From NCBI GenBank assembly GCA_965204375.1, contig OZ241986.1, positions 3,232,001-3,296,000 of the forward strand: 64,000 bases of DNA, given 5' to 3'. Below the pieces are notes generated by a model. That model did no database searches. It saw only the letters and a list, made by a program, of their open reading frames with translations, and had not been told where the DNA came from. Source of the stretch: Candidatus Latescibacterota bacterium (GTDB taxonomy: Bacteria; Latescibacterota; UBA2968). Position 1 is the first letter of the stretch; each line of letters opens with the position of its first letter. The translations under genes were made by a program, and so were the position numbers. Of this stretch, positions 3,897-13,125 are shown in pieces.

Positions 3897-6266
3897 CTAC
3901 CTTCGGTTGCTCCAAGCTTCAGGTTGAGAGTCGAGTACTTCGGCGTATTTCAGTCTCTCGAGCCGATCTTTTAGTGAGTCTTTGTTGCCAATCGGACCAT
4001 TAAGATCCTGGTTTAACTTCAAGTCATCCCGGATCCGTCTGACATCCGTCAGGAGAGCATCGCCCTCTACGGATGTGTCGACAATGGCCTCAATCCTCTC
4101 GAGCAGCACAACAATATCCGCTTTTGTTGCCGTAGAAAGACGATCTTTGAGAAAGAGTGCCTTCTCTCTTTCCACGCGAGCCGCGATGGATTCCTGCTCC
4201 CGTTCTCGTTCAGCTTTGCGTTGCATGGCTGTCAACTTGGAAAATAGTGCTGCGAATCGGCTTCGCATTTTATTTGCGGCCTCGGAATTTCTTTCTGCAC
4301 AGACGTCAAGGGCATGTCGGGCAAATCCGAGTTTCTCAAGGCGAAGTTCGCTACCGGCCTTGTCAAGACCCTTCTGGATCGCCTTGAAGACCCCAGTGGA
4401 TTCTGACAGCGATTCTTTAATGGTATCTGCTTCGGGGAACTCCTCGGGTAGCTCTATGTCCATCTCGCTCAGGTATTTTTTCGCAGCCTCTATCGCTATT
4501 TCTACCGGAATGAGATCCTCAATTTCTAAAGGTCCACCACACCGGTCGCTTGAAAGACCATCAACCGCGTTGGGTTTTAACTGCAGGACGTATTCGTCTC
4601 TGATCAACTGCTTGTTGCGGGGGCCGCCTCGCTGCAGATCTTTCACAGCACGGTCGCCTTCCTCGTCGCCATCGAGGAGCACAATAACTGCAGGCTTGTT
4701 GGCATCTCTGCCACGAGCCAAGAATGCCATGTACGGAACATGACTGGCAGATCCTGCTGGAACCAGAGTGATCCGATTTAGATCGAGACGTTGGGTGCTA
4801 GCGAAATTTGCTTTGCCGAGTAGGTCAGACATGCCAGCGAGGTATACCTGATCAGCCATTCCTTCCAACATCAGGTTGCAGTTCCCGATGAATGCCATCT
4901 CCCCTACGAAACCTCCCAATGCGGTACGAAGCGGCTCAAAGTGGTTGCGCCCAACATCGCGTACGACACGCACGCCTTCCTCGCCGGAGCCTTTATCGAG
5001 GACCCGAATCCGGTCAGCGCGGTTTTTGTCGATTAGGAATGGTGAGTGGGTTACAAATACAACTTGGCCTCCCGGAGCAGTCTCTGTGGGCAGTGTGAAC
5101 TCATGCAGGACTCGAAGGAGGTCCTGCTGACCTTGGTTAGACAAATATGCGTCTGGCTCATCCATTAGGAGAATCTCCGACCCAGAGCGGTCCTTGACAT
5201 GGGCCAAGAATTGAACGAGGTAGCTGAGGAAATATTTTAGGCCACTACTGCGTTCAGCAAAGGAATACTCGCTGCCCGTACGATCTCGGATAGTAAAGAC
5301 GATGTCGAAGTCTCGAACGGCAATCGCTAAACGAAACTGGTGATCCTGTGACCACCACTTGGAGAGATTTAGAGAGCTTTCCAGTTGTGAGTTCATTGAG
5401 GCCACAATGCCATTAGCAAGCCCTTCATCATCATTACGAAGAGCCTTCTGTAGTTCAACGAATGCCGAGACGTGGATGCCACCAACAGTTACCAGAAGAT
5501 CAAAGGCAAGGTTCAGTTGGTTGCAATGGGATTCTGTTTCCTGCGCACTCATCCTAGAAATATTTGATAAGAAGGACTGGATTTTTTGGCTAAAGTGCTG
5601 TGAATCAGGCATCTGTTTCGATAAATCCTGAGCATGTCCGAGTAAAGAATCTAAGAGTGTCAAGCGATCGGTACGCATCAGGTCTGGTTTTGCGTTTTGA
5701 TCCCCGTCTCTGTCAATCAAAAATGAAATCGGTACACTGTTTGGGATGGCACGTGCTGGATCAATGCGGAAGACCTTTGGGAGAAAACCAGCTAGTTTTT
5801 CGAGATCATTGATTTCATAATGCTGATCGTCTGTATATAGTGTCGCACTGTCGGCGCTAGTACGGAAAACCCGAAACGAGGAGATATTTAAATCATCAGG
5901 GGATTCAATGAGTTCTGATATTTCTTCAGCCTCGTCGGATGTAACATCTTCGAAATGGAGGCCAAAGTGCGGGATCTTCATGGCTTCTGAGACGGTGAAG
6001 TAATCGGAATATCGGCAAAAGTCTGCTGGCGTTGGGCACTCATTGCCTAGCGCGCATTCGATCGCCTGAAGGAATTGACTTTTTCCAGATTCGTTAGCAC
6101 CGACAATAGCCGTGAGTTCAGGGTCAATGTCAAGAGAAACGTAGGGGTAGAATGTATCGTCCTCCATCTGATCCCAAGGATCAGGCTGGGCATTGGGGTG
6201 CTGTTTTCGCAGGTAGTCGAAGTTGAAGGCTCGGTAAAATCTGACGTATGCGGTTCGAAGTATCAT
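3897..6266 (-). CDS. OLD-family-like ATP-dependent nuclease (ABC ATPase + TOPRIM)
   Basis: Walker A GANESGKS, signature RSSG, Walker B LLMDEPD, H-loop VTHSP, TOPRIM MLEGMAD and LLDGDEEG. Confidence 0.8.
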   Translation of the reverse strand: MILRTAYVRFYRAFNFDYLRKQHPNAQPDPWDQMEDDTFYPYVSLDIDPELTAIVGANESGKSQFLQAIECALGNECPTPADFCRYSDYFTVSEAMKIPHFGLHFEDVTSDEAEEISELIESPDDLNISSFRVFRTSADSATLYTDDQHYEINDLEKLAGFLPKVFRIDPARAIPNSVPISFLIDRDGDQNAKPDLMRTDRLTLLDSLLGHAQDLSKQMPDSQHFSQKIQSFLSNISRMSAQETESHCNQLNLAFDLLVTVGGIHVSAFVELQKALRNDDEGLANGIVASMNSQLESSLNLSKWWSQDHQFRLAIAVRDFDIVFTIRDRTGSEYSFAERSSGLKYFLSYLVQFLAHVKDRSGSEILLMDEPDAYLSNQGQQDLLRVLHEFTLPTETAPGGQVVFVTHSPFLIDKNRADRIRVLDKGSGEEGVRVVRDVGRNHFEPLRTALGGFVGEMAFIGNCNLMLEGMADQVYLAGMSDLLGKANFASTQRLDLNRITLVPAGSASHVPYMAFLARGRDANKPAVIVLLDGDEEGDRAVKDLQRGGPRNKQLIRDEYVLQLKPNAVDGLSSDRCGGPLEIEDLIPVEIAIEAAKKYLSEMDIELPEEFPEADTIKESLSESTGVFKAIQKGLDKAGSELRLEKLGFARHALDVCAERNSEAANKMRSRFAALFSKLTAMQRKAEREREQESIAARVEREKALFLKDRLSTATKADIVVLLERIEAIVDTSVEGDALLTDVRRIRDDLKLNQDLNGPIGNKDSLKDRLERLKYAEVLDSQPEAWSNRR

Positions 6267-6331
6267 GCTTAAAACCTTATTTTAAAGTAAATCTGCCTCG
6301 AGAGATGATTCGGCATTTCCCATACACGGCT

Positions 6332-6445
6332 TCAAGGGCGGCGAAGAAGCTTTCGTAAATCGGATTCGGCATCGGCATTGGACGTAAATTCCACGCCTCC
6401 CTCACTCCAATAAATGATGATTTCGTACTTGTGATTATTAATCAT
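6332..6445 (-). pseudogene. 5' stub of a HicB-family antitoxin gene
   Basis: MINNHKYEIIIYWSE matches a common HicB N-terminus, then the sequence diverges. Confidence 0.5.
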
Positions 6446-6476
6446 TGGTTTGATCTCTTGAAAAGAGTGTTTTTGG

Positions 6477-7265
6477 TCAAACAGATTCGCCAAAAGCACT
6501 TTTTTTGTACAGTTCCCTATGTTCTTCATCTATCAGTTCTACGGAAGATACATCCTCAAGAAGGGCATAATCCTCAACGAAATTTTTGAATTTGGCTCCT
6601 CGTTCGCTCAGACAATTGTAAAATAGAAGCCCCAATTCATAACTTGACAATTGTGCGCGGACAAGATTGGTATAGAGTTTTGTATCTTCTTTGAGAAGAT
6701 CGCTATGATGGTCAACAAATTTGACAACATTGTACAGATGCCTAAAGTAATACCCAACATGTGGCTCATAGGGAATTAAAAAACTTTCATAAGTATCATT
6801 GAGAATTTTCGCTTCAGGAGAATTACTACTTGCAGCTTTTTGGACTTTGGGATAATGTTCTTTTTTCAAATCATTAAGCATTTTAACAAAGCACTCCCGT
6901 CCGCCTACCATGTTCCGAATTTCCATTGTATTGACAATATCATTATGCAGGCTAAGAAGTTGAAAAAAGGCACTTCCAAAATTCTGCTTTTGAAGTTGTT
7001 CTTTTTGGAGTGCGAGTTCCGCTTGCTGAACGTGTAGCGTCCAAATGAGAATAGCAAAAGCCAGTCCAGTAAACAAAGCGGTGATAAAGCCAAACGAATC
7101 GCCCCATTGTCCTCTTTTCTCAACGCTAGGAACTAAATCTGGGAAAAACCATGCCCCCCAAAGAATGAGCAAACCAATGAGAACGACAAATATTCCCAAA
7201 CCTATTAAACCTGTTTTAATCTTTTTCCGCCAGTTCGTTTTCGATTCATCAGAACTTTTGTCCAT
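6477..7265 (-). CDS. putative phage abortive infection protein (putAbiC-like) with two N-terminal TM helices
   Basis: GQWGDSFG in the TM region; YFRHLYNVVKFVD and YTNLVRAQLSSYELGLLFYNCL motifs. Confidence 0.75.
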   Translation of the reverse strand: MDKSSDESKTNWRKKIKTGLIGLGIFVVLIGLLILWGAWFFPDLVPSVEKRGQWGDSFGFITALFTGLAFAILIWTLHVQQAELALQKEQLQKQNFGSAFFQLLSLHNDIVNTMEIRNMVGGRECFVKMLNDLKKEHYPKVQKAASSNSPEAKILNDTYESFLIPYEPHVGYYFRHLYNVVKFVDHHSDLLKEDTKLYTNLVRAQLSSYELGLLFYNCLSERGAKFKNFVEDYALLEDVSSVELIDEEHRELYKKSAFGESV

Positions 7266-7279
7266 GGAAACAACCTTTC

Positions 7280-9868
7280 CTAAATTTGCGCGTGTCCATT
7301 TATCTTCAATGCCTGATACAGGCTGTCCTTAAATTTATTCTCATCTTCATTGTTGTAAAACGGCACGCCAATCAAACGGTAGTTTTCGTTCTCAAATGTC
7401 AAGGTTTTGCAGTCAAACTCGGAAGAGATGTCCTGTAAGAAGTTTTCCTTCCAACGGTCATTCTCTTTCAGATGCTTCCCTTTGGGTTCAATAAACATCT
7501 GATAGGTAAGCAGGTTTCCATCTTGTTCTCGCAGAAACAGAACAAAATCTGGCTCAAATGCCTGTCCATCCTCAAAGTTATAAATCTTGAAATGCCTTTC
7601 GTTTCGCAGCAGATATATCTCGTCGTAATCTTCTGTTAGCTTGCCCATCTGGCGGTCGAGCATTCGCACAAATGCCTTTTCCTCACTCGTGCCGTAAACT
7701 GTATTGAAGGCAAACCAGTCTTTGGATGATACGAAATGTACGAATTGTGCATCCTCAGCGGCCTGCGGGTTTTGAGCGTCAAATTTTAACACTTTATCCT
7801 TGAAGACGTTATGCACCCTATCGCTCCTGAAATCTCGCGAGCCTTCGTATTCGGTAATTTGCTGGCGGATTTCGGATTCGATTTGGTGCAAAAGCCCGCA
7901 CACAGCTTCCCGCTGTTCAGCGCGGTTGTATTGCAACGCAGACACCTGGCCTTCAAAAGTGATCTCCAGCCCCCCAAGATAATTTTCAGAACTAATGAAT
8001 TCTCGAATAGATGCTATATTGGGGAAATAGCGTCTGAGGGATGAGAACGTAAAGAATGGATTGCGTGCAATAGCAGATTGAACAATATTCCGTCCAAAGT
8101 CTTTAACCTTCATATCCCGACGGTTTTCATCTTTCACAATTGCGCCCTGATGTTCGCTTGCCAAAACTGTTTGTGTGCCACCGTGACCTGTGGCGATGGT
8201 ATGAACGTAGTTTTGCATTTTCACACCTAAATCATCAAAAGATTGTACCCTCTGATAATTTTTGGGAAGACGGTCATTGAGCCAGACCACACCGTATTTG
8301 TAGAAGTCGGTCTGCTTGAACGGGTCTTTGAGTTTCAGTTTGCGGGTCACTTCGCGCTCATCCATCATGCCTTGCTCGATCAGCGCGGTGCGAAGTTCAG
8401 AGATATATCGGGAATCATGGATACTGTGATAATGCAACTCCTCCAGCACGCGCAGTTCATTTTCAAGGTCATCATCAAATTTTCGACAGAAGCGGTCAGT
8501 GTTCTCGGGTAAAACAAAAGGAAAATAACGCGCTCCACGACCAATGAGTTGCGCTTCGGAAAGGGTTGTTCTCCCAATTCTATTCTTTCCCGAGTCACGC
8601 GCTTCGTAACAGCGGACAATGTCGAACAGATTCAGGACATCCCAACCCTCATTGAGTTTTTGTACAGCAAAGATAGCGCGGATGAGATTGTCTCGGTCTT
8701 CGAGCGTGTTGACCAGTATTTGGTAGTTCTCCTTCTCTTTTTCTGCGTTGACTGAGATGCAGTAGTCTTCCTGAAATGCCCGCTTGAGGCGTTCTGCCAA
8801 CTGCGCGTCACTGATATTGTGATCATCAAAGAATTGAAACGCCCGCAAAACAAGAGGAATATCCGATCTGCGAATGCGAGCTATATGGTCTGCTGTGAGA
8901 CCATCAACGAGTGTGTGAAAGTTGGTCTTGTTCTCTTGCGATTGTGCAATCGTACGCTGTGCTTTGAACAAAATCACGGGTTTGAGATTGATCTGATATT
9001 TCGCAGCCACTTCCTGTTTGTACTGGCTAAGAATCAGAGCTTGTAGGATGCGCTCGTCCAGGTCGAAGTCGGATTGCACAATGACTACATCTTTTGAAAA
9101 ACGGTCGTTGCGGAATTGAAGCAAATCATAGCGGTATAATACCTTGTTGCGGTATTTTTCCACCATCGCAGGCGTCTCGTAATCGTGCGTGGCCGTGAAC
9201 TCCAAGAGGAGATTGTCTTCATTCTGGGAGAAGATGCGCTCAACGGTATTTTCCCAACTCTCGAACATCTCTCGCTGAGATTTGGTCGTAACGTTCATGT
9301 GATGGGCTTCATCGGCAATCAACACAATCCTGTGTTTGCGGAAGTCTTCAAAAGTGATGGCATTTTCTTTTTCAGTAGTCAGATCGGAGTGTAGTTTTTG
9401 GATGGTGGTGAAACAGATATTGATATCGTTGGGATTAACCGACTCGAAGTTCTCTACTGGTGCGATTCGCACGGAGCGGTTGGCGATGTGAATATCCCTG
9501 CTGAACAGGTATTTGATACTGACGGGATTGAGAAAATTGTCCCGCGTCTTTTCGATGATATTGGTGGAATTGACGAAAAAGAGAAAGTTTCTATATCCCT
9601 TTTCATACAAGTAGAGAATCAGCCCCGCCATGATAAGCGTCTTGCCGCTGCCTGTCGCCATGTTGAACAGAAAATGCAGTGGCCGTTCCTTGCCGGGAAA
9701 CTCCTTATCAAGACAGTGAAAGAACCGGGTAAACGCCTCTTCTTGATAGGGGCGGAGTTCAAATTTAGGATTCAGATTGTCTTTGAGGTAGGAGGGGATT
9801 TCTTTTTGGAGAAATCCCATTTGGAAAACAGCATCAAGCTGCTCATATAGAAAATTATCAGCCATCAT
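7280..9868 (-). CDS. res: type III restriction endonuclease Res subunit
   Basis: MATGSGKT, DEAHH, LNEGWD, QLIGRGAR helicase motifs; C-terminal PD...EPK nuclease motif. Confidence 0.92.
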   Translation of the reverse strand: MMADNFLYEQLDAVFQMGFLQKEIPSYLKDNLNPKFELRPYQEEAFTRFFHCLDKEFPGKERPLHFLFNMATGSGKTLIMAGLILYLYEKGYRNFLFFVNSTNIIEKTRDNFLNPVSIKYLFSRDIHIANRSVRIAPVENFESVNPNDINICFTTIQKLHSDLTTEKENAITFEDFRKHRIVLIADEAHHMNVTTKSQREMFESWENTVERIFSQNEDNLLLEFTATHDYETPAMVEKYRNKVLYRYDLLQFRNDRFSKDVVIVQSDFDLDERILQALILSQYKQEVAAKYQINLKPVILFKAQRTIAQSQENKTNFHTLVDGLTADHIARIRRSDIPLVLRAFQFFDDHNISDAQLAERLKRAFQEDYCISVNAEKEKENYQILVNTLEDRDNLIRAIFAVQKLNEGWDVLNLFDIVRCYEARDSGKNRIGRTTLSEAQLIGRGARYFPFVLPENTDRFCRKFDDDLENELRVLEELHYHSIHDSRYISELRTALIEQGMMDEREVTRKLKLKDPFKQTDFYKYGVVWLNDRLPKNYQRVQSFDDLGVKMQNYVHTIATGHGGTQTVLASEHQGAIVKDENRRDMKVKDFGRNIVQSAIARNPFFTFSSLRRYFPNIASIREFISSENYLGGLEITFEGQVSALQYNRAEQREAVCGLLHQIESEIRQQITEYEGSRDFRSDRVHNVFKDKVLKFDAQNPQAAEDAQFVHFVSSKDWFAFNTVYGTSEEKAFVRMLDRQMGKLTEDYDEIYLLRNERHFKIYNFEDGQAFEPDFVLFLREQDGNLLTYQMFIEPKGKHLKENDRWKENFLQDISSEFDCKTLTFENENYRLIGVPFYNNEDENKFKDSLYQALKINGHAQI

Positions 9869-9870
9869 AT

Positions 9871-10131
9871 CTAATCTCTGTACACTTCACGACGATGCTG
9901 GACCCGGTAAACTTCAATCTCCCGCTTTTTTCGGTCAACAACATAGACGACGCGATAATCGCCCACGCGCAGTCTGAACCGGCCTTGATCCGGTCCAGTG
10001 AGTGCCGTCAGTTTGGTAGCCTCAAAGTTCTCGGCTAACCACCGCAGTTTTCCAATTACGCGCTGTGCTGTTGCCCTATCCAAACGTCGTACATCAGATT
10101 GAGCACGATCCGAAAATACCACATCATACAT
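9871..10131 (-). CDS. RelE/StbE-family toxin
   Basis: YDVVFSDRAQSD...FRLRVGDYRVVY...VQHRREVYR; TAATG stop/start overlap with mod. Confidence 0.9.
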   Translation of the reverse strand: MYDVVFSDRAQSDVRRLDRATAQRVIGKLRWLAENFEATKLTALTGPDQGRFRLRVGDYRVVYVVDRKKREIEVYRVQHRREVYRD

Positions 10132-12254
10132 TACCAATTAAGCCCCAATTCTTCGGCGACTTTCTCGGCAGGGGTAGTCTTTCCACCAGCTTTCACATCG
10201 GCGATGGTCTGCTGGAGATCTGCGACAAATTCGTCGCGCAATTCCAACCCCTCGTCGGGATCATGTCCGTAGAACTCCTCGTTTAATTCCTTGTCTCCCG
10301 CGCTTATGCCAAAGTCCTCGTCGTCAATCTCCGAAAAATTCACATACAACTGATTCTTGTCCAGCAGTTCCACCAGCAACTTCTTCTGCTTGCTCACCCC
10401 ATTTTCTCCTTCGCCGATGGCGATAAAATCGTTGACTGCATCTTCCGGGATTTCAGGATTCACATACCAATTCAAAAACGAATTTTCGGCAATATCTCGC
10501 CAGAGTGCTACAAGCTCTTTTGAAGATTGCGCGGCTTGAATTTTATCCATATAGACTTCGTTGTATTGCATCAGTTCACAATAGACAAAGTCGCCACCGC
10601 CCTTCCATGCGACGGATTTAGATATACCGCCAGCGTCATATTCAATTTTTTTGGGTAGTTTGTCCTTCGCCTTAATTTTTTTTCCAACAACTTTTTTTAT
10701 TCGTTCAAGCGTGATAGTTTCCACATAATCCATCTGTTCAATTCCGATATACTGACGTCCCATTTTGTGAGCGACAGAGCAAGTCGTTCCACTTCCCAAA
10801 TGGAAATCTAAAACAATATCTCCTTCTTCAGTTGTGTATTCAATAATGCGTTGAATGAGTAATTCAGGTTTTGGATAAGCAAACACTTTGCCCCCGAATA
10901 ATTCTACAATTTCATCCGTGCCTTTCTTGTTGGTCACACTCTTTAGCAATTCATCCATCACTTGATTGAGAAAGTTTGATGATACGTATGTTTTATCAAA
11001 GTCGGCTCCTTTTTTTTCAATTTCTTCCGACTTAAAAACTCGCATAGCAGGGCGTTTAAGATTGAGAAAATCATAATCGCCGGGAAAAACTATTTTCTTT
11101 CTTTTCAGATATTCATCTACTGAATCTTTAGTAATACCCCAGCAACGATTAGGATTAACGGGAAACTCTTGCTCATTTCTCGGATTGACCAATGTGAAAT
11201 TTGAATTAGGGCGTTCATGAATTGTGCGTTGAGTAGTAAGATCGCTCGTTCTCCATTCATCGTCTGGAAAATCGGGTGTTTTATAATACTTTCTTACAAT
11301 GGTGCGCCCGAAAAGCTCATCTTTCTTCGATGCGCCTTTTGTGTACATCAGCATCCAGTCAAAATCTTGTGATAGTTTATAAGGCACATCGCTTTTTCCA
11401 CTTCGTGTCTTTCTGGGAACAGTTGCGATAAAATTGTCTCTGCCAAATATATCGTCAGCAATGAGTTTCAAATAGTGCATTTCTTGGTCGCCAATGTGAA
11501 TGAAGATAACCCCTTCATTCTTCAACAACTCTCTCGCCACTTCCAGCCGATTCCTCATAAACGTCAGCCAGCTTGAATGTTTGAAATTGTCGTTATATCC
11601 AAAGCCATCACCATTGATGTTATAGGGCGGATCAATGTAAATTAGCGTCACCTTACCCTGGAACTGCTGTTTGAGCGTGTGCAATGCCACCAAATTATTG
11701 CCCTTTATAATCAAGTTTTCACGGATCGTGCCACTTTCATCCCGTTTGAACCCCATCACGTCCTCTTCACCATCCACCGTATAGCGTTTCCACTGGGTCA
11801 ATACCTTTGGATCAAATAGCCGGTCAATCTCGTCCTGTGCCAGAATTTCATTGAAGAAAATCTCTTTGCGCTTTTCCTCTTCCTTGGTCTGCCCGCCCTC
11901 CAGTACACAATCTTTGTACGGCCACACCAGGGACACTTCACCTCGCTCCCGCAGAAATTTATCGTCGATATTCAAACCAATCCTGTTGCGGAATCGGGTG
12001 TATGCATTGGCGAGAAAGTTCTTATCGGAAACATATTCGATAAAGGTGTTGATATTGAAAATCCAGTGGCCTTCGATTTCGTCAAAAAATTTTGCCTTGA
12101 TATCCGCATCACCAAGCAGCAGTCTCACAAGATCAGGATCAATCTTCCAAGCTCGATCTGTCACTGCAGCCTTGACCAACTCGCCCTCTTCATCAATGAA
12201 ACGGGCGTCGGTTTTGAGCAATTCGATCAATTTTTCGTTAAAGTTTTTTGACAT
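10131..12254 (-). CDS. mod: type III Mod adenine methyltransferase with a C-terminal antitoxin-like extension
   Basis: IYIDPPY and DFHLGSGTT motifs; NLIIKGNNL; 44-aa tail after LNEEFYG. Confidence 0.92.
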   Translation of the reverse strand: MSKNFNEKLIELLKTDARFIDEEGELVKAAVTDRAWKIDPDLVRLLLGDADIKAKFFDEIEGHWIFNINTFIEYVSDKNFLANAYTRFRNRIGLNIDDKFLRERGEVSLVWPYKDCVLEGGQTKEEEKRKEIFFNEILAQDEIDRLFDPKVLTQWKRYTVDGEEDVMGFKRDESGTIRENLIIKGNNLVALHTLKQQFQGKVTLIYIDPPYNINGDGFGYNDNFKHSSWLTFMRNRLEVARELLKNEGVIFIHIGDQEMHYLKLIADDIFGRDNFIATVPRKTRSGKSDVPYKLSQDFDWMLMYTKGASKKDELFGRTIVRKYYKTPDFPDDEWRTSDLTTQRTIHERPNSNFTLVNPRNEQEFPVNPNRCWGITKDSVDEYLKRKKIVFPGDYDFLNLKRPAMRVFKSEEIEKKGADFDKTYVSSNFLNQVMDELLKSVTNKKGTDEIVELFGGKVFAYPKPELLIQRIIEYTTEEGDIVLDFHLGSGTTCSVAHKMGRQYIGIEQMDYVETITLERIKKVVGKKIKAKDKLPKKIEYDAGGISKSVAWKGGGDFVYCELMQYNEVYMDKIQAAQSSKELVALWRDIAENSFLNWYVNPEIPEDAVNDFIAIGEGENGVSKQKKLLVELLDKNQLYVNFSEIDDEDFGISAGDKELNEEFYGHDPDEGLELRDEFVADLQQTIADVKAGGKTTPAEKVAEELGLNW

Positions 12255-13125
12255 GTTGTGGTCCTTTAACGTTTATTTTTTTGGTGTTATCGGCCGTTTG
12301 TAGCTTTGAAACCAAATCATTTACAGCCGCTTGCACTACTGACCAGGATATTTGATACGTATCGGCATCTGGATATATACCTGTAGTCATCTGCTCATAT
12401 GGATGAATAAGATTTCTAAAATCTCTCAATGCATGTGAAAACTTTTGAACATCCGTATTGATCCAACCAATTTGATGCGCCACATCTATCATTTCGGCAA
12501 GTTTCCAATCGGAAAATTTTTTTATCTTGTTCGTTTTTGGATCTTTAGGAGCACTCGCGCATTTATTGGCTTCTGCTGGATTCTGTTGAAAAATTCCGAA
12601 CAGCAATCCTTCCAATATGCTACCCATGATAATTATTGCCGATAAATATGTTCCAGCTTTACCACAATTTTGCGCTTCATCCCATCTGTTTTTTAGTATC
12701 TTTCCGACCTCGGGTCTTAATCCAATTGACAAAAAATCTGGAGGTGGAAACAGCTTCATCTCTTTTGTAACCTCACCATCATCTGAAAAATCTACAGCGA
12801 TTTTTTTAAATTTTGGTTCATTGCCATCAAGTATTATTTTGAATCCTTCAAAATAAAATATGTTATTTAGCTGCTTAAGCGCAGTTCTAATTTGCTCCTG
12901 ATTACCGCCGTACTCAAATGGTGAGGCCAGCCTTTTAAGTACAAGTGCAAGTTGTTCTCTGTTACACGCTTTTAGTGTTTCTAAAACCCATAACCGACGG
13001 GTTGAGCCATCATGAACAAATTGAGGTAATCCCACTCTTTGAAAGAATTTAGTTAGTTCGTGGCCAGATCGATAAGGATAACCACAAATAAACTCGGCAA
13101 TTTCATTGAAAGTACTTTCATCCAT
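12238..13125 (-). CDS. putative HEPN-domain protein with an AbiJ-like N-terminal domain
   Basis: N-terminal YRSGHELTKFF...HDGSTRRLW; C-terminal GSILEGLL and RDFRNLIHP (R...H); overlaps the mod start. Confidence 0.6.
   Translation of the reverse strand: MDESTFNEIAEFICGYPYRSGHELTKFFQRVGLPQFVHDGSTRRLWVLETLKACNREQLALVLKRLASPFEYGGNQEQIRTALKQLNNIFYFEGFKIILDGNEPKFKKIAVDFSDDGEVTKEMKLFPPPDFLSIGLRPEVGKILKNRWDEAQNCGKAGTYLSAIIIMGSILEGLLFGIFQQNPAEANKCASAPKDPKTNKIKKFSDWKLAEMIDVAHQIGWINTDVQKFSHALRDFRNLIHPYEQMTTGIYPDADTYQISWSVVQAAVNDLVSKLQTADNTKKINVKGPQHVKKL

Follow-up and report, generated by a model that had tools for sequence, protein, structure and literature searches.

A Type III restriction-modification (R-M) operon of a Candidatus Latescibacterota bacterium carries the gene of a RelE-type protein between mod and res, and raises the question of what would neutralize such a toxin where no antitoxin gene accompanies it. 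The window analyzed here, the whole 64,000-nucleotide stretch taken from contig OZ241986.1 (positions 3,232,001 to 3,296,000), shows mod and res as a pair by domain matches, with relE as the sole gene between them. Among minus-strand open reading frames (ORFs) of at least 30 aa, none other than mod and relE was found at 9871-10400, and there is thus no separate antitoxin ORF. The features needed to follow the argument are as follows.

12238..13125, minus strand: 295-aa ORF without a known family, which shares 17 nt with the start of mod and may be the first operon gene
12254..10131, minus strand: mod, Type III R-M methyltransferase of 707 aa, including the putatively grafted tail
10265..10134, minus strand: 44-aa C-terminal tail of Mod, probably the former toxin-binding portion of a small antitoxin of RelB type
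10239..10253, minus strand: GAGGGG-N6-TTG within the tail, read in the sequence, a possible but unproven internal start
10129..10133, minus strand: TAATG overlap of the mod stop and the relE start, read directly, a candidate for translational coupling
10131..9871, minus strand: relE, 86-aa RelE-type toxin ORF
9868..7280, minus strand: res, Type III restriction subunit of 862 aa, with its ATG at 9868

As seen, the genes are tightly packed. The mod stop codon TAA (10133..10131) shares a base with the relE ATG (10131..10129), an alternative TTG start at 10137 would give a RelE of 88 instead of 86 aa, and 2 nt separate the relE stop from the res start. The tail (HDPDEG...LGLNW) follows directly on the Mod segment ...DKELNEEFYG. 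All the elements of the layout described in the initial annotation, namely 44 in-frame residues past FYG, the TAATG overlap, res just after relE and the lack of an antitoxin ORF, are therefore present. A TAATG-like overlap or close abutment was found in fused and free antitoxin-toxin pairs alike. The 295-aa ORF gave no Pfam or PADLOC matches and is conserved in the closest relatives only, at loci L026 (89%) and the edge of L006. Directly downstream of the operon lie an AbiC/AbiP-like protein and an AAA_15 ATPase of the AriA/OLD/GajA kind.

The identity of the two R-M subunits is clear. Mod matches the N6/N4 methylase domain PF01555 (2.8e-45, 155.4 bits), the N-terminal Type III Mod domain PF12564 (6.6e-19, 68.4 bits) and PADLOC MTase_III (2.6e-174), the last match being confined to residues 128 to 663, and DPPY (IDPPYN) and FxGxG-like (HLGSGTT) motifs are read directly in its translation. 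Res, on the same strand and 3' of mod, matches the superfamily-2 helicase (ResIII) domain PF04851 (1.1e-32, 113.6 bits) and PADLOC REase_III (2.5e-143). Aligning Mod homologues, as the initial annotation had proposed, located the usual end of the protein at ..FYG. Of the best 120 out of 1687 Mod homologues, 86 terminate no more than a few residues from this segment, and the other 34 have the tail. A metagenome scan aimed at fused Mods yielded untailed ones, which were used as a control set of 80 loci. The Mod alignment ends at residue 662 to 673 in 75 of them, including L084, which ends at residue 673 and has its stop just after ..FYG/..FYH; in the other 5 (L104, L122, L124, L128 and L090) it extends further, but their translations stop 3 to 5 residues past ..FYG/..FYH. 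Alignments that apparently enter the tail in L104, L122, L124 and L128 are spurious, as they cross a stop codon and overlap res. relE is missing from all 80 of these untailed loci, and of the 73 in which both mod and res are present, 62 have the two genes abutting, at most 11 nt apart. By these comparisons, the tail is an add-on to Mod.

A fusion of this kind might arise during assembly, but independent DNA and RNA-library contigs and independent assemblies span the junction, and an artifact was rejected. A 4158-nt contig from an RNA library (run X16) spans 9600..10600 unbroken, showing 41 substitutions and no gaps, and two further contigs, X5 from a sponge metagenome and X15 from a metatranscriptome, run through both 10131 and 10265 without indels; indels were listed only at 9635-9655, within res. 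The assembly junction at about 10265 that the initial annotation had considered was seen in none of the contigs crossing the site. RNA-library contigs were taken as evidence of presence, not as proof of transcription, and an uncovered part in X3 (10246-10313) was given no weight.

The ORF between mod and res belongs to the RelE/ParE superfamily. Its 88-aa form scores 45.4 bits against PF05016 (cutoff, 23) and 24.2 bits against TIGR02385, the RelE/StbE subfamily (cutoff, 27.9); since the latter score is just below the threshold, we name the ORF RelE-like rather than a member of the curated subfamily. The family profile matches solved RelE toxins (2khe at 4e-17, 3g5o, 9g12, 4fxe and 1wmi), and the same profile gave no ParE match at E<=0.01. 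The conserved RelE residues R60, H79, R80 and Y84 are all present, and we take them to be the counterparts of the catalytic residues of Escherichia coli RelE. Judged from these matches, the toxin is closer to RelE-type RNases than to gyrase-poisoning ParE.

The origin of the tail is suggested by its relatives. The initial annotation had proposed a likeness to the C-terminal half of small antitoxins that precede relE, and both a genome scan and a profile search bear this out. The genome scan, for which the tail was the query, retrieved 239 relatives, and 80 of them entered the locus analysis. The tail is 50 to 81% identical to the C-terminal half of free 74- to 81-aa ORFs that, across many phyla, immediately precede a relE homologue. 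The majority of tail-bearing ORFs have this length, with the tail as their C-terminal half; among 82 tail-bearing ORFs in 79 kept loci, the relE directly downstream was intact in 48, partial in 17 and missing in 17. The profile search gave 209 representative clusters (E<=1e-3), mostly of 70 to 80 aa and matching at the C-terminus. Searching with the tail alone, another proposal of the initial annotation, thus led to matches that adjoin relE on its upstream side; in a word-indexed protein collection, an index too insensitive for the purpose, the same query gave a single match, the 65-aa partial C-terminus of a Mod. Against curated antitoxin families the tail stayed below all cutoffs (NF048017, E of 0.022, 15 bits versus 50), and so did its free relatives against RelB models NF048017, NF050811 and TIGR02574/PF09720 (best score, 17.6 bits versus 50; TIGR02574, 14.9 versus 31.9). 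The nearest Atlas cluster is labeled "Addiction module antitoxin RelB family" (score, 0.92) and is without a Pfam family. The tail would act like the RelB C-terminus yet lies outside curated families. The fusion keeps the C-terminal half only, and the approximately 30 to 38 N-terminal residues of the free relatives are without a Pfam DNA-binding domain.

Some tail proteins of Poribacteria are longer, at 228 to 240 aa, and BLASTP alignments of them reaching Mod residue 601 had prompted the idea that they are C-terminal fragments of Mod. This was rejected, as the pairwise extension past the tail is weak; their neighbors are recG-like, hexapeptide-transferase, sigma-factor and purH-like genes, and by sequence they are a different N-terminal domain on the same tail.

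Whether the tail could bind this RelE was addressed by modeling the complex, as had been proposed. The co-fold of the tail with RelE gave an ipSAE of 0.78, against 0.01 for the best control, and so predicts binding, a pass that may mirror known structures because RelB-RelE complexes have already been solved. Of 80 solved complexes, 58 attain the co-fold mark, as do 2 of 110 mismatched pairs; these counts hold roughly for our co-folds, which were fed with our own alignments. At least 93% of contacts are shared between runs, partner pLDDT is 83 or higher, and the predicted interface comprises RelE residues 80 and 82 to 85 and tail residues 6 to 10 and 39 to 40. The tail also evolves slowly: over its 44 codons, dN/dS is approximately 0.2, and it ranges from 0.17 to 0.3 in diverged fused pairs with dS of 0.6 to 1.0. 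By this codon measure, the tail is under purifying selection. Its invariant residues are kept in all six Mod-fused loci with an intact relE; in the relE-less locus L007 the invariant E8 is replaced by A, and in L009 the near-invariant L40 is replaced by S.

The arrangement is not an accident of one genome, an outcome that the initial annotation had considered; a synteny survey found mod::tail-relE-res in metagenome-assembled genomes of Latescibacterota, Poribacteria and Opitutales. The module is shared by unrelated, mostly sponge-associated phyla. Seven Mod-linked RelEs form one clade (support, 100/99) that covers the three phyla and is nested in a clade of 36 rows, 29 of them from free pairs, and the module has been kept despite up to approximately 40% divergence of Mod. 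This topology suggests a single capture by Mod, followed by spread. A likely picture of the origin of the fusion is offered by L026, where an untailed mod is followed by a full-length free antitoxin, a PIN toxin, a 3' remnant of relE and res, in this order; the free antitoxin is joined at its end to another segment.

A second architecture was found on a different enzyme. The same tail, together with relE, occurs on Type ISP-like methylases of relatives in Chloroflexota. Of the tailed loci, 14 of 23 have an intact relE immediately 3' of the methylase gene, versus 0 of 7 untailed ones; in the other 9 tailed loci relE is lost or broken. This capture appears to be independent of that by Type III Mod. 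Since the tail was found in one metagenome-assembled genome, G001, alone among 401 sampled Chloroflexota genomes, the fusion is not phylum-wide; among the relatives of G001 (n=151), 68 have the ISP-like enzyme, and the sister architecture occurs in 25 matches. We write "Type ISP-like methylase" and not complete Type ISP enzyme, because no helicase or nuclease gene was found beside the G001 methylase, where a DUF4145 protein stands alone.

The suggestion that Mod itself neutralizes RelE, made in the initial annotation, fits the predicted complex, the purifying selection on the tail, the multiphylum recurrence and the lack of a full-length free antitoxin elsewhere in the genome, where the sole other tail-like match is a 52-aa ORF that covers tail positions 1 to 27 and has no relE adjoining. 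The same annotation had also pointed to GAGGGG-N6-TTG (GAGGGG at 10253..10248, 6 nt, TTG at 10241..10239) as a start from which a free peptide of approximately 36 aa could be made. Were this nested gene the real antitoxin, its in-frame overlap with mod would be a by-product and the Mod tail would be irrelevant, a reading that we regard as improbable. The motif exists, and its codons are conserved in Mod fusions: GAG GGG TTG GAA TTG is identical in 8 of 10 fused sequences compared, including pairs with dS of approximately 0.7 (the exceptions have GGT in L008 and GCA in L007). In contrast, free antitoxins vary at these codons; of 38 compared, 27 have GAA and just 16 use TTG for the second Leu. 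However, the rough chance of seeing no synonymous change without constraint is approximately 0.1, which is not significant, and the conserved protein sequence D-E-G-L-E-L accounts for the motif. Moreover, the start is not needed in ISP fusions, 13 of 23 of which have TTC, TTT, TGG, CTG or CTT at the equivalent codon, and L186 to L189 lack TTG at both Leu positions and have an intact relE. A start at that Leu would also drop tail residues 2 to 8, within the predicted interface.

The loci in which the toxin has decayed bear on whether the module functions at all. Tailed Mods without relE, which the initial annotation had taken as a point against the pairing, do occur: of 9 Mod-fused loci, L005, L007 and L009 have lost an intact relE to truncation, deletion or replacement. 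However, relE remnants in L005 and L009 point to secondary losses of the toxin, not to a tail independent of relE. Methylase-dead Mods are also common. Forms of 457 to 458 aa make up 15 of the 34 tailed Mod clusters among the 120 best of 1687 homologues, and P0005, the one that was aligned, has an in-frame deletion of approximately residues 258 to 506 by which part of the methylase core is gone; the deletion variant also appears as a loose end at 10056 in runs X5 and X15. These losses could suggest a decaying relic, with two genes joined by an accidental deletion, a RelE that is inactive or disappearing and a tail that does nothing. We consider this very improbable, given a dN/dS of approximately 0.2 in the tail, the intact conserved residues of RelE, retention of the module in three phyla across the Mod divergence noted above and a separate ISP-like capture in which most tailed loci retain relE.

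The reading that we prefer, with a probability of roughly 0.7, is that full-length Mod is the antitoxin and that the cassette serves as an integrity lock, or addiction device, of the R-M operon. A two-gene RelE toxin-antitoxin cassette would first have been captured by a mod-res operon, between its two genes; a subsequent deletion would have taken out the mod stop codon and the N-terminal helix of the antitoxin, so that its C-terminal, RelE-binding half of 44 aa became the C-terminus of Mod. Translation of relE would be coupled to the mod stop and that of res to the relE stop. The tail of full-length Mod is predicted to bind RelE and would wrap it, covering its C-terminal catalytic face; RelB likewise needs its C-terminus to suppress RelE (PMC12301738). 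If the locus were lost or no longer expressed, or if mod were truncated by mutation, RelE would be free to arrest translation. Because the neutralizing segment is translated last, only cells still making full-length Mod would be protected.

Type III Res requires Mod. An R-M system of this type is therefore unable to kill after its loss, and the cassette would supply the lock that it lacks. In this reading we infer the toxicity of RelE, its neutralization, the lability of the tail and the selective role. The tail sits on a large, presumably stable fusion partner and may not be labile, in which case addiction by differential decay fails. The frequent loss or breakage of relE (3 of 9 Mod-fused and 9 of 23 ISP loci) indicates that the module is dispensable. 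In the 457- to 458-aa Mod forms the lock may never have operated: in L005, the one locus seen with the Mod break points of P0005, both relE and res are deleted.

The same architecture and binding would also serve a second line of defense resembling PrrC/EcoprrI, with abortive infection as the selected function: phage shutoff of the host, degradation or inhibition of Mod-Res or displacement of the tail would free RelE, stop translation and abort the infection. The operon stands among defense genes (the AbiC/AbiP-like gene and the AAA_15 ATPase directly downstream), HEPN-MNT and PIN cassettes occupy the same junction in other members of the Mod/Res family, toxins masked by R-M proteins and embedded in R-M operons are an established idea (PrrC; PMC3710099 and PMC12707154), and RelE/ParE toxins are known from defense operons (PMC11980606). 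However, the module does not keep its flanking defense genes (AbiC recurs in L008 only and the upstream ORF in L026 and L006 only), and free relatives of the pair and the 228- to 240-aa tail proteins occur in ordinary contexts, e.g., beside recG or purH-like genes. We thus find abortive infection rather unlikely as the selected function, although it is compatible with the integrity lock, and both may hold.

Tentatively, and at somewhat less than even odds, the two captures may represent a general class, in which DNA-recognition/methylase subunits of ATP-dependent R-M enzymes were turned into antitoxins by a RelE-binding C-terminal tail, with at least two independent origins (Type III Mod and Type ISP-like). 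If so, RelE would police the full-length translation of R-M enzymes, and nonsense and frameshift mutations, phase-variable switching, deletion or shutoff would release it; the same wiring could also signal that a phage is attacking the R-M enzyme. Such policing would account for the finding of both captures in R-M types whose restriction needs the methylase and which hence have no self-enforced maintenance, and it would fit the in-frame deletion of P0005, a common Mod-dead form that retains the tail.

Since PrrC, toxin genes have been recognized inside R-M operons, and defense islands often contain toxin-antitoxin cassettes. How R-M and toxin-antitoxin systems are coupled is usually unclear, both physically and functionally; here, the coupling would be written into one protein, with the methylase carrying the antidote, which makes the locus a clean and directly testable case. 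It suggests a new route of self-protection, in which the antidote is placed at the end of the protein's own reading frame so that truncation or loss is punished. The multiphylum module and its ISP sister architecture indicate a recurrent solution, not a curiosity. The analysis also defines a portable 44-aa segment, putatively RelE neutralizing, and a widespread family of small antitoxins that has no name in current Pfam and NCBIfam models. A search of one library of papers, without their supplements, found no description of a Mod-antitoxin or ISP-antitoxin fusion (Table S2 of PMC11980606 might list such loci); in the main text of PMC11980606, "methyltransferase" has 0 occurrences.

Among known systems, the RelBE type II pairs (E. 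coli RelB-RelE and archaeal aRelB-aRelE) share with this locus a RelE-family toxin and a neutralizing element that lies directly upstream and is translationally coupled. The tail is predicted to wrap the toxin by a C-terminal segment, as the RelB C-terminus does (PMC12301738). Unlike those pairs, the module lacks both a separate antitoxin gene and any DNA-binding or N-terminal portion; the segment is the C-terminus of a 707-aa methyltransferase, and expression is tied to the R-M operon instead of an autoregulated promoter. With PrrC of the Type Ic system EcoprrI it shares a toxin gene inside an R-M operon, here relE between mod and res; PrrC likewise targets translation and is thought to be held inactive by R-M proteins (PMC3710099 and PMC12707154). 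In contrast, PrrC is an ABC-ATPase/HEPN anticodon nuclease that a Type I enzyme masks through noncovalent contact and the T4 peptide Stp unmasks, whereas here an 86-aa RelE-type protein in a Type III system would be masked through a grafted antitoxin segment.

Other cassettes use the same junction. In 9 of the 73 untailed loci of the same family holding both genes, 428 to 836 nt lie between mod and res. The genes found at the junction are PF08780 with a Polbeta nucleotidyltransferase (confirmed in L101 and L129; by eye in L135, L143 and L149), PIN_3 in L118, DUF559 in L136 and a DUF6036 nucleotidyltransferase-like ORF in L114, below the cutoff, with L142 alike by eye. HEPN-MNT and PIN cassettes in R-M operons stay separate genes with their own antitoxins, whereas here the antitoxin appears to have merged into Mod. 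Finally, fused toxin-antitoxin genes (CapRel-type; RelE-YiaG and YefM-YoeB, PMC11980606) resemble the module in their covalent antitoxin segment and possible role in defense. In those proteins the antitoxin is joined to its own toxin; here, it would be joined to an unrelated enzyme, and the toxin is separate.

The locus consists of four co-oriented, tightly packed genes on the minus strand (a 295-amino-acid [aa] ORF, mod, relE and res), followed by two further genes downstream.

13125..12238, minus strand: 295-aa ORF without a Pfam or PADLOC match; 17-nt overlap with the mod start
12254..10131, minus strand: mod, 707 aa; PF01555 and PF12564; PADLOC Type III methyltransferase (2.6e-174)
10131..9871, minus strand: relE-type ORF, 86 aa from ATG or 88 aa from TTG at 10137; PF05016 (45.4 bits; cut-off, 23)
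9868..7280, minus strand: res, 862 aa; PF04851; PADLOC Type III restriction enzyme (2.5e-143)
within 3897-7265, minus strand: AbiC/AbiP-like protein directly downstream of res, 262 aa; PF16872
within 3897-7265, minus strand: AAA_15/AAA_21 ATPase downstream of res, 789 aa; best PADLOC matches AriA, Old and GajA

The PADLOC methyltransferase match covers Mod residues 128 to 663 only. As the initial annotation had described, mod terminates and relE initiates within a single TAATG, with res just beyond the relE stop (a gap of 2 nt). No further minus-strand ORF of at least 30 aa was found near relE, and thus there is no separate antitoxin gene. Given the AbiC/AbiP-like protein and the AriA/Old/GajA-like ATPase located 3' of res, the operon lies within a defence island, beside gatB/gatA. 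The 295-aa ORF is conserved upstream of mod in the closest relatives only, namely, locus L026 (89% identity) and the edge of locus L006.

The last 44 residues of Mod had been proposed to be an addition to a protein normally ending at ..FYG, and the homologues agree. A search with residues 520 to 707 found 1,687 Mod homologues, and the C termini of the best 120 were compared; 86 stop at most a few residues from ..LNxxFYG, and the other 34 are tailed, reading DPDEGLELR...LGL(N/K/T/H)W or, in a more divergent version, ...LG(I/V)(K/E)L. A metagenome scan yielded 80 loci, all of them untailed and with relE absent from every one; in 62 of the 73 with both mod and res, the Mod alignment ends no more than 11 nt from the res start. 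Four seemingly longer Mod alignments among the metagenome loci were rejected as tailed candidates, since each crosses a stop codon. Complete mod::tail-relE-res units were found in metagenome-assembled genomes of Latescibacterota (L004, L008, and L011), Poribacteria (L006) and Opitutales (L014 and L018), with Mod 58 to 93% identical to that of the window and with varying flanking genes, so the synteny is not a single-genome occurrence. Contigs from other studies cross the fusion junctions without indels, which argues against an assembly junction near position 10265; a 4,158-nt RNA-library contig, evidence of presence and not of transcription, spans 9600..10600. The dN/dS of the tail (44 codons) is 0.17 to 0.3 for pairs with a dS of 0.6 to 1.0. 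The Mod-tail fusion is real, under selection, and mobile.

The tail had been proposed to resemble the C-terminal half of antitoxins that precede relE, and this proposal was borne out. An alignment of ten tails was scanned against one genome per prokaryote species; in the 80 loci kept of 239 relatives, the tail shares 50 to 81% identity with the C-terminal half of 74- to 81-aa free ORFs upstream of relE, with the consensus M..VADLTVDEFRELIREVV.QTL.E.LGDPDEGLELR..F...LQ.SLAAV.AGGKTIPAEEVA..LGL.W. HMMs of both families located 82 tail-bearing ORFs in 79 loci, directly followed by an intact relE (48), a partial relE (17) or none (17). Against 1.84 billion representative proteins, the tail profile matched 209 clusters at an E of ≤1e-3, most of them 70 to 80 aa long and matched at residues ~32 to 74. 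The free proteins fall below every curated Pfam/NCBIfam cut-off (the best being NF048017, "RelB-like," at 17.6 bits versus 50, and TIGR02574), and the closest Atlas cluster is automatically named "Addiction module antitoxin RelB family." We take these proteins to act as RelB does but do not assign them to any curated family.

Elsewhere in the window's genome, the family has no full-length antitoxin; the only other tail match is a 52-aa ORF outside the window (L209, G000:C1:5148368-5148448), which covers tail positions 1 to 27 only (..GDPDEGLELREEFVEELREAEAKVDAG..), has no relE nearby and represents a decayed remnant or else another kind of small protein. In Poribacteria, 228- to 240-aa proteins without a Pfam family end in the tail, usually with relE next (L054, L060, L062, L064, L065, L068, L073, L075, L076, and L080 to L083, at about 5440-6140), and their neighbours are recG-like, hexapeptide-transferase, sigma-factor or purH-like genes; in these proteins, the tail has yet another, third type of N-terminal partner. 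Also in Poribacteria, free antitoxin-relE pairs at L029, L031 and L032 lie 0.2 to 1.5 kb from fragments of the same mod/res family, which hints that restriction-modification (R-M)/toxin-antitoxin units have come together or decayed repeatedly in this phylum.

When 46 RelE sequences of the tail loci were combined into a profile, it matched solved RelE-type toxins, namely, 2khe (4e-17), Rv2866 (3g5o), E. coli RelE (4fxe; ribosome bound, 4v7j/4v7k), and archaeal 1wmi. No ParE appeared among the structure matches at an E of ≤0.01. Residues R60 and R80 never vary, and H79 and Y84 hardly do; the window's copy, which looks functional from its sequence, has all four, which we take to correspond to the E. 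coli RelE catalytic residues. Co-folding of RelE with the tail, as had been suggested, with both supplied as custom-made alignments, gave an ipSAE of 0.78 (0.74 to 0.79 in three runs), whereas the best of three controls scored 0.01. In calibration, 58 of 80 solved complexes and 2 of 110 mismatched pairs attained this mark, counts that apply roughly given the custom alignments; the pass may also partly reflect resemblance to known structures, since RelB-RelE-like complexes have already been solved. The runs share at least 93% of contacts, with a partner pLDDT of at least 83, and the modelled contacts involve RelE residues 3 to 11, through strand addition by tail residues 30 to 33, and C-terminal residues 80 and 82 to 85. 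The tail is thus predicted to bind RelE. According to PMC12301738, the RelB C terminus is needed for RelE suppression.

The relE gene was lost in three more Mod::tail loci. In L009, 18 codons are left in frame, running from the start straight into the final 17 residues; L005 joins the first 27 relE codons to res residue 760, and L007 has 214 nt of other sequence in its place. L007 and L009, the two loci with a full-length Mod and no usable relE, carry E8A and L40S, respectively, at tail sites otherwise conserved in 46 relE-linked tails; both sites fall within the predicted RelE interface. This pattern of decay agrees with the results above. The relE 3' end surviving in L009 and L026 is the stretch immediately upstream of res and probably carries the res translation signals.

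Shortened Mod forms of 457 to 458 aa make up 15 of the 34 tailed clusters (P0004 to P0006 and P0009 to P0020) among the best 120 of 1,687 homologues. In P0005, the one form aligned, an in-frame deletion of about residues 258 to 506, between two IG..QM.Y repeats, takes part of the methylase core and keeps the tail; Mod of L005 breaks at the same residues, and the L005-type relE/res deletion junction shows up at 10056 as a loose end in sequencing runs X5 and X15. The 214-nt replacement in L007 (6136-6348) contains a repeated ATTGTAGGGGCGA motif and finishes with a coding stretch (..SREGLYEYHL) resembling the C-terminal extension of 132-aa antitoxin hybrids (L026:6130-6288 and L017:6124-6285); it could be a mobile or recombining element of small size.

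Regarding the origin of the fusion, L026 has an untailed mod, ending ..FYGDS and split into two ORFs, followed by a free, full-length antitoxin (N-terminal helix plus tail) whose end carries a further fused segment; next come a PIN-domain toxin, what remains of the relE 3' end, and res. This layout indicates that a cassette formerly sat unfused at the mod-res junction. Among the 73 untailed loci with both genes, 9 have 428 to 836 nt between mod and res, which makes this junction a hotspot where toxin-antitoxin modules insert. The following features lie between mod and res.

L101 and L129: HEPN-type PF08780 plus Polbeta (MNT) nucleotidyltransferase, confirmed
L135, L143 and L149: the same pair, recognized by eye
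L118: PIN_3 pair
L136: DUF559
L114: DUF6036 nucleotidyltransferase-like ORF, below the cut-off
L142: DUF6036-like pair, resembling L114 by eye

In an unrooted tree of 86 columns, the 7 Mod-linked RelEs form one clade (support, 100/99) with a long stem, nested in a 36-row clade in which 29 rows come from free pairs. The RelEs linked to a second fusion, with Type ISP-like methylases, fall outside the Mod-linked clade, with supported branches between. At L078 (691-4211), a 1,087-aa protein with Type ISP coupler, N6_Mtase and Type_ISP_C domains has the C terminus DPDEGLELRPEV... and is followed by relE; tailed enzymes of about 1,040 to 1,120 aa also occur at L176 and L178 to L200, in relatives of G001, the Chloroflexota genome carrying this fusion. 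All of the best 120 of 4,341 homologues of the L078 C terminus end in a DPDEG-type tail (75 with the strict pattern, most others with a near variant, and 5 ending inside the motif), and many of them read ...DPDEGLEFTEEFLAGLEQSIAEAAAGKTIPAEEVYRRLGLD. The enzyme is present in 68 of 151 relatives of G001; in a 401-genome phylum sample, the tailed form occurred in G001 only. For the 23 tailed loci with downstream sequence, relE is intact in 14 (within about 10 to 40 nt), broken in 4, and missing in 5, and it adjoins none of the 7 untailed copies. This looks like an independent capture of tail and relE. No helicase or nuclease gene adjoins the methylase in G001, hence the label ISP-like methylase. 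L078 (3951-6389) also holds three tandem tail-relE pairs, in which the methylase and 161-aa and 153-aa tail proteins each precede a relE.

An internal start yielding a free antitoxin peptide had also been suggested. Of the 10 fused Mod sequences compared, 8 share the codons GAG GGG TTG GAA TTG, which vary in free antitoxins; the roughly estimated chance of such conservation is ~0.1. Nevertheless, the equivalent codon is TTC, TTT, TGG, CTG or CTT in 13 of 23 ISP fusions, and L186 to L189 have no TTG at either Leu position and keep relE. Since ISP fusions without TTG retain relE, the free peptide is not required for this architecture, although one may be made from mod.

A full-text literature search, together with passages of a HEPN survey (PMC3710099) and a 2025 R-M review (PMC12707154), yielded no Mod-antitoxin or ISP-antitoxin fusion; the main text of a 2025 RelE/ParE survey (PMC11980606) contains "methyltransferase" 0 times. 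On the observed anatomy, homology, recurrence and selection of the fusion, a mechanism can be proposed in which full-length Mod would be the antitoxin for RelE, coupled translation would hold RelE at or below the Mod level, and whatever stops full-length Mod production would release RelE. We prefer to read the fusion as an integrity lock or addiction device, because restriction depends on the methylase subunit in both host R-M types, whose own loss would otherwise go unpunished. The main rival, by analogy with PrrC, is that RelE may act as a guard; the window's defence neighbours, the AbiC/AbiP-like protein and the AriA/OLD-like ATPase, are in line with such a role, but they are not conserved alongside the mod::tail-relE-res module. 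A PrrC-like guard would also be compatible with the favoured lock.
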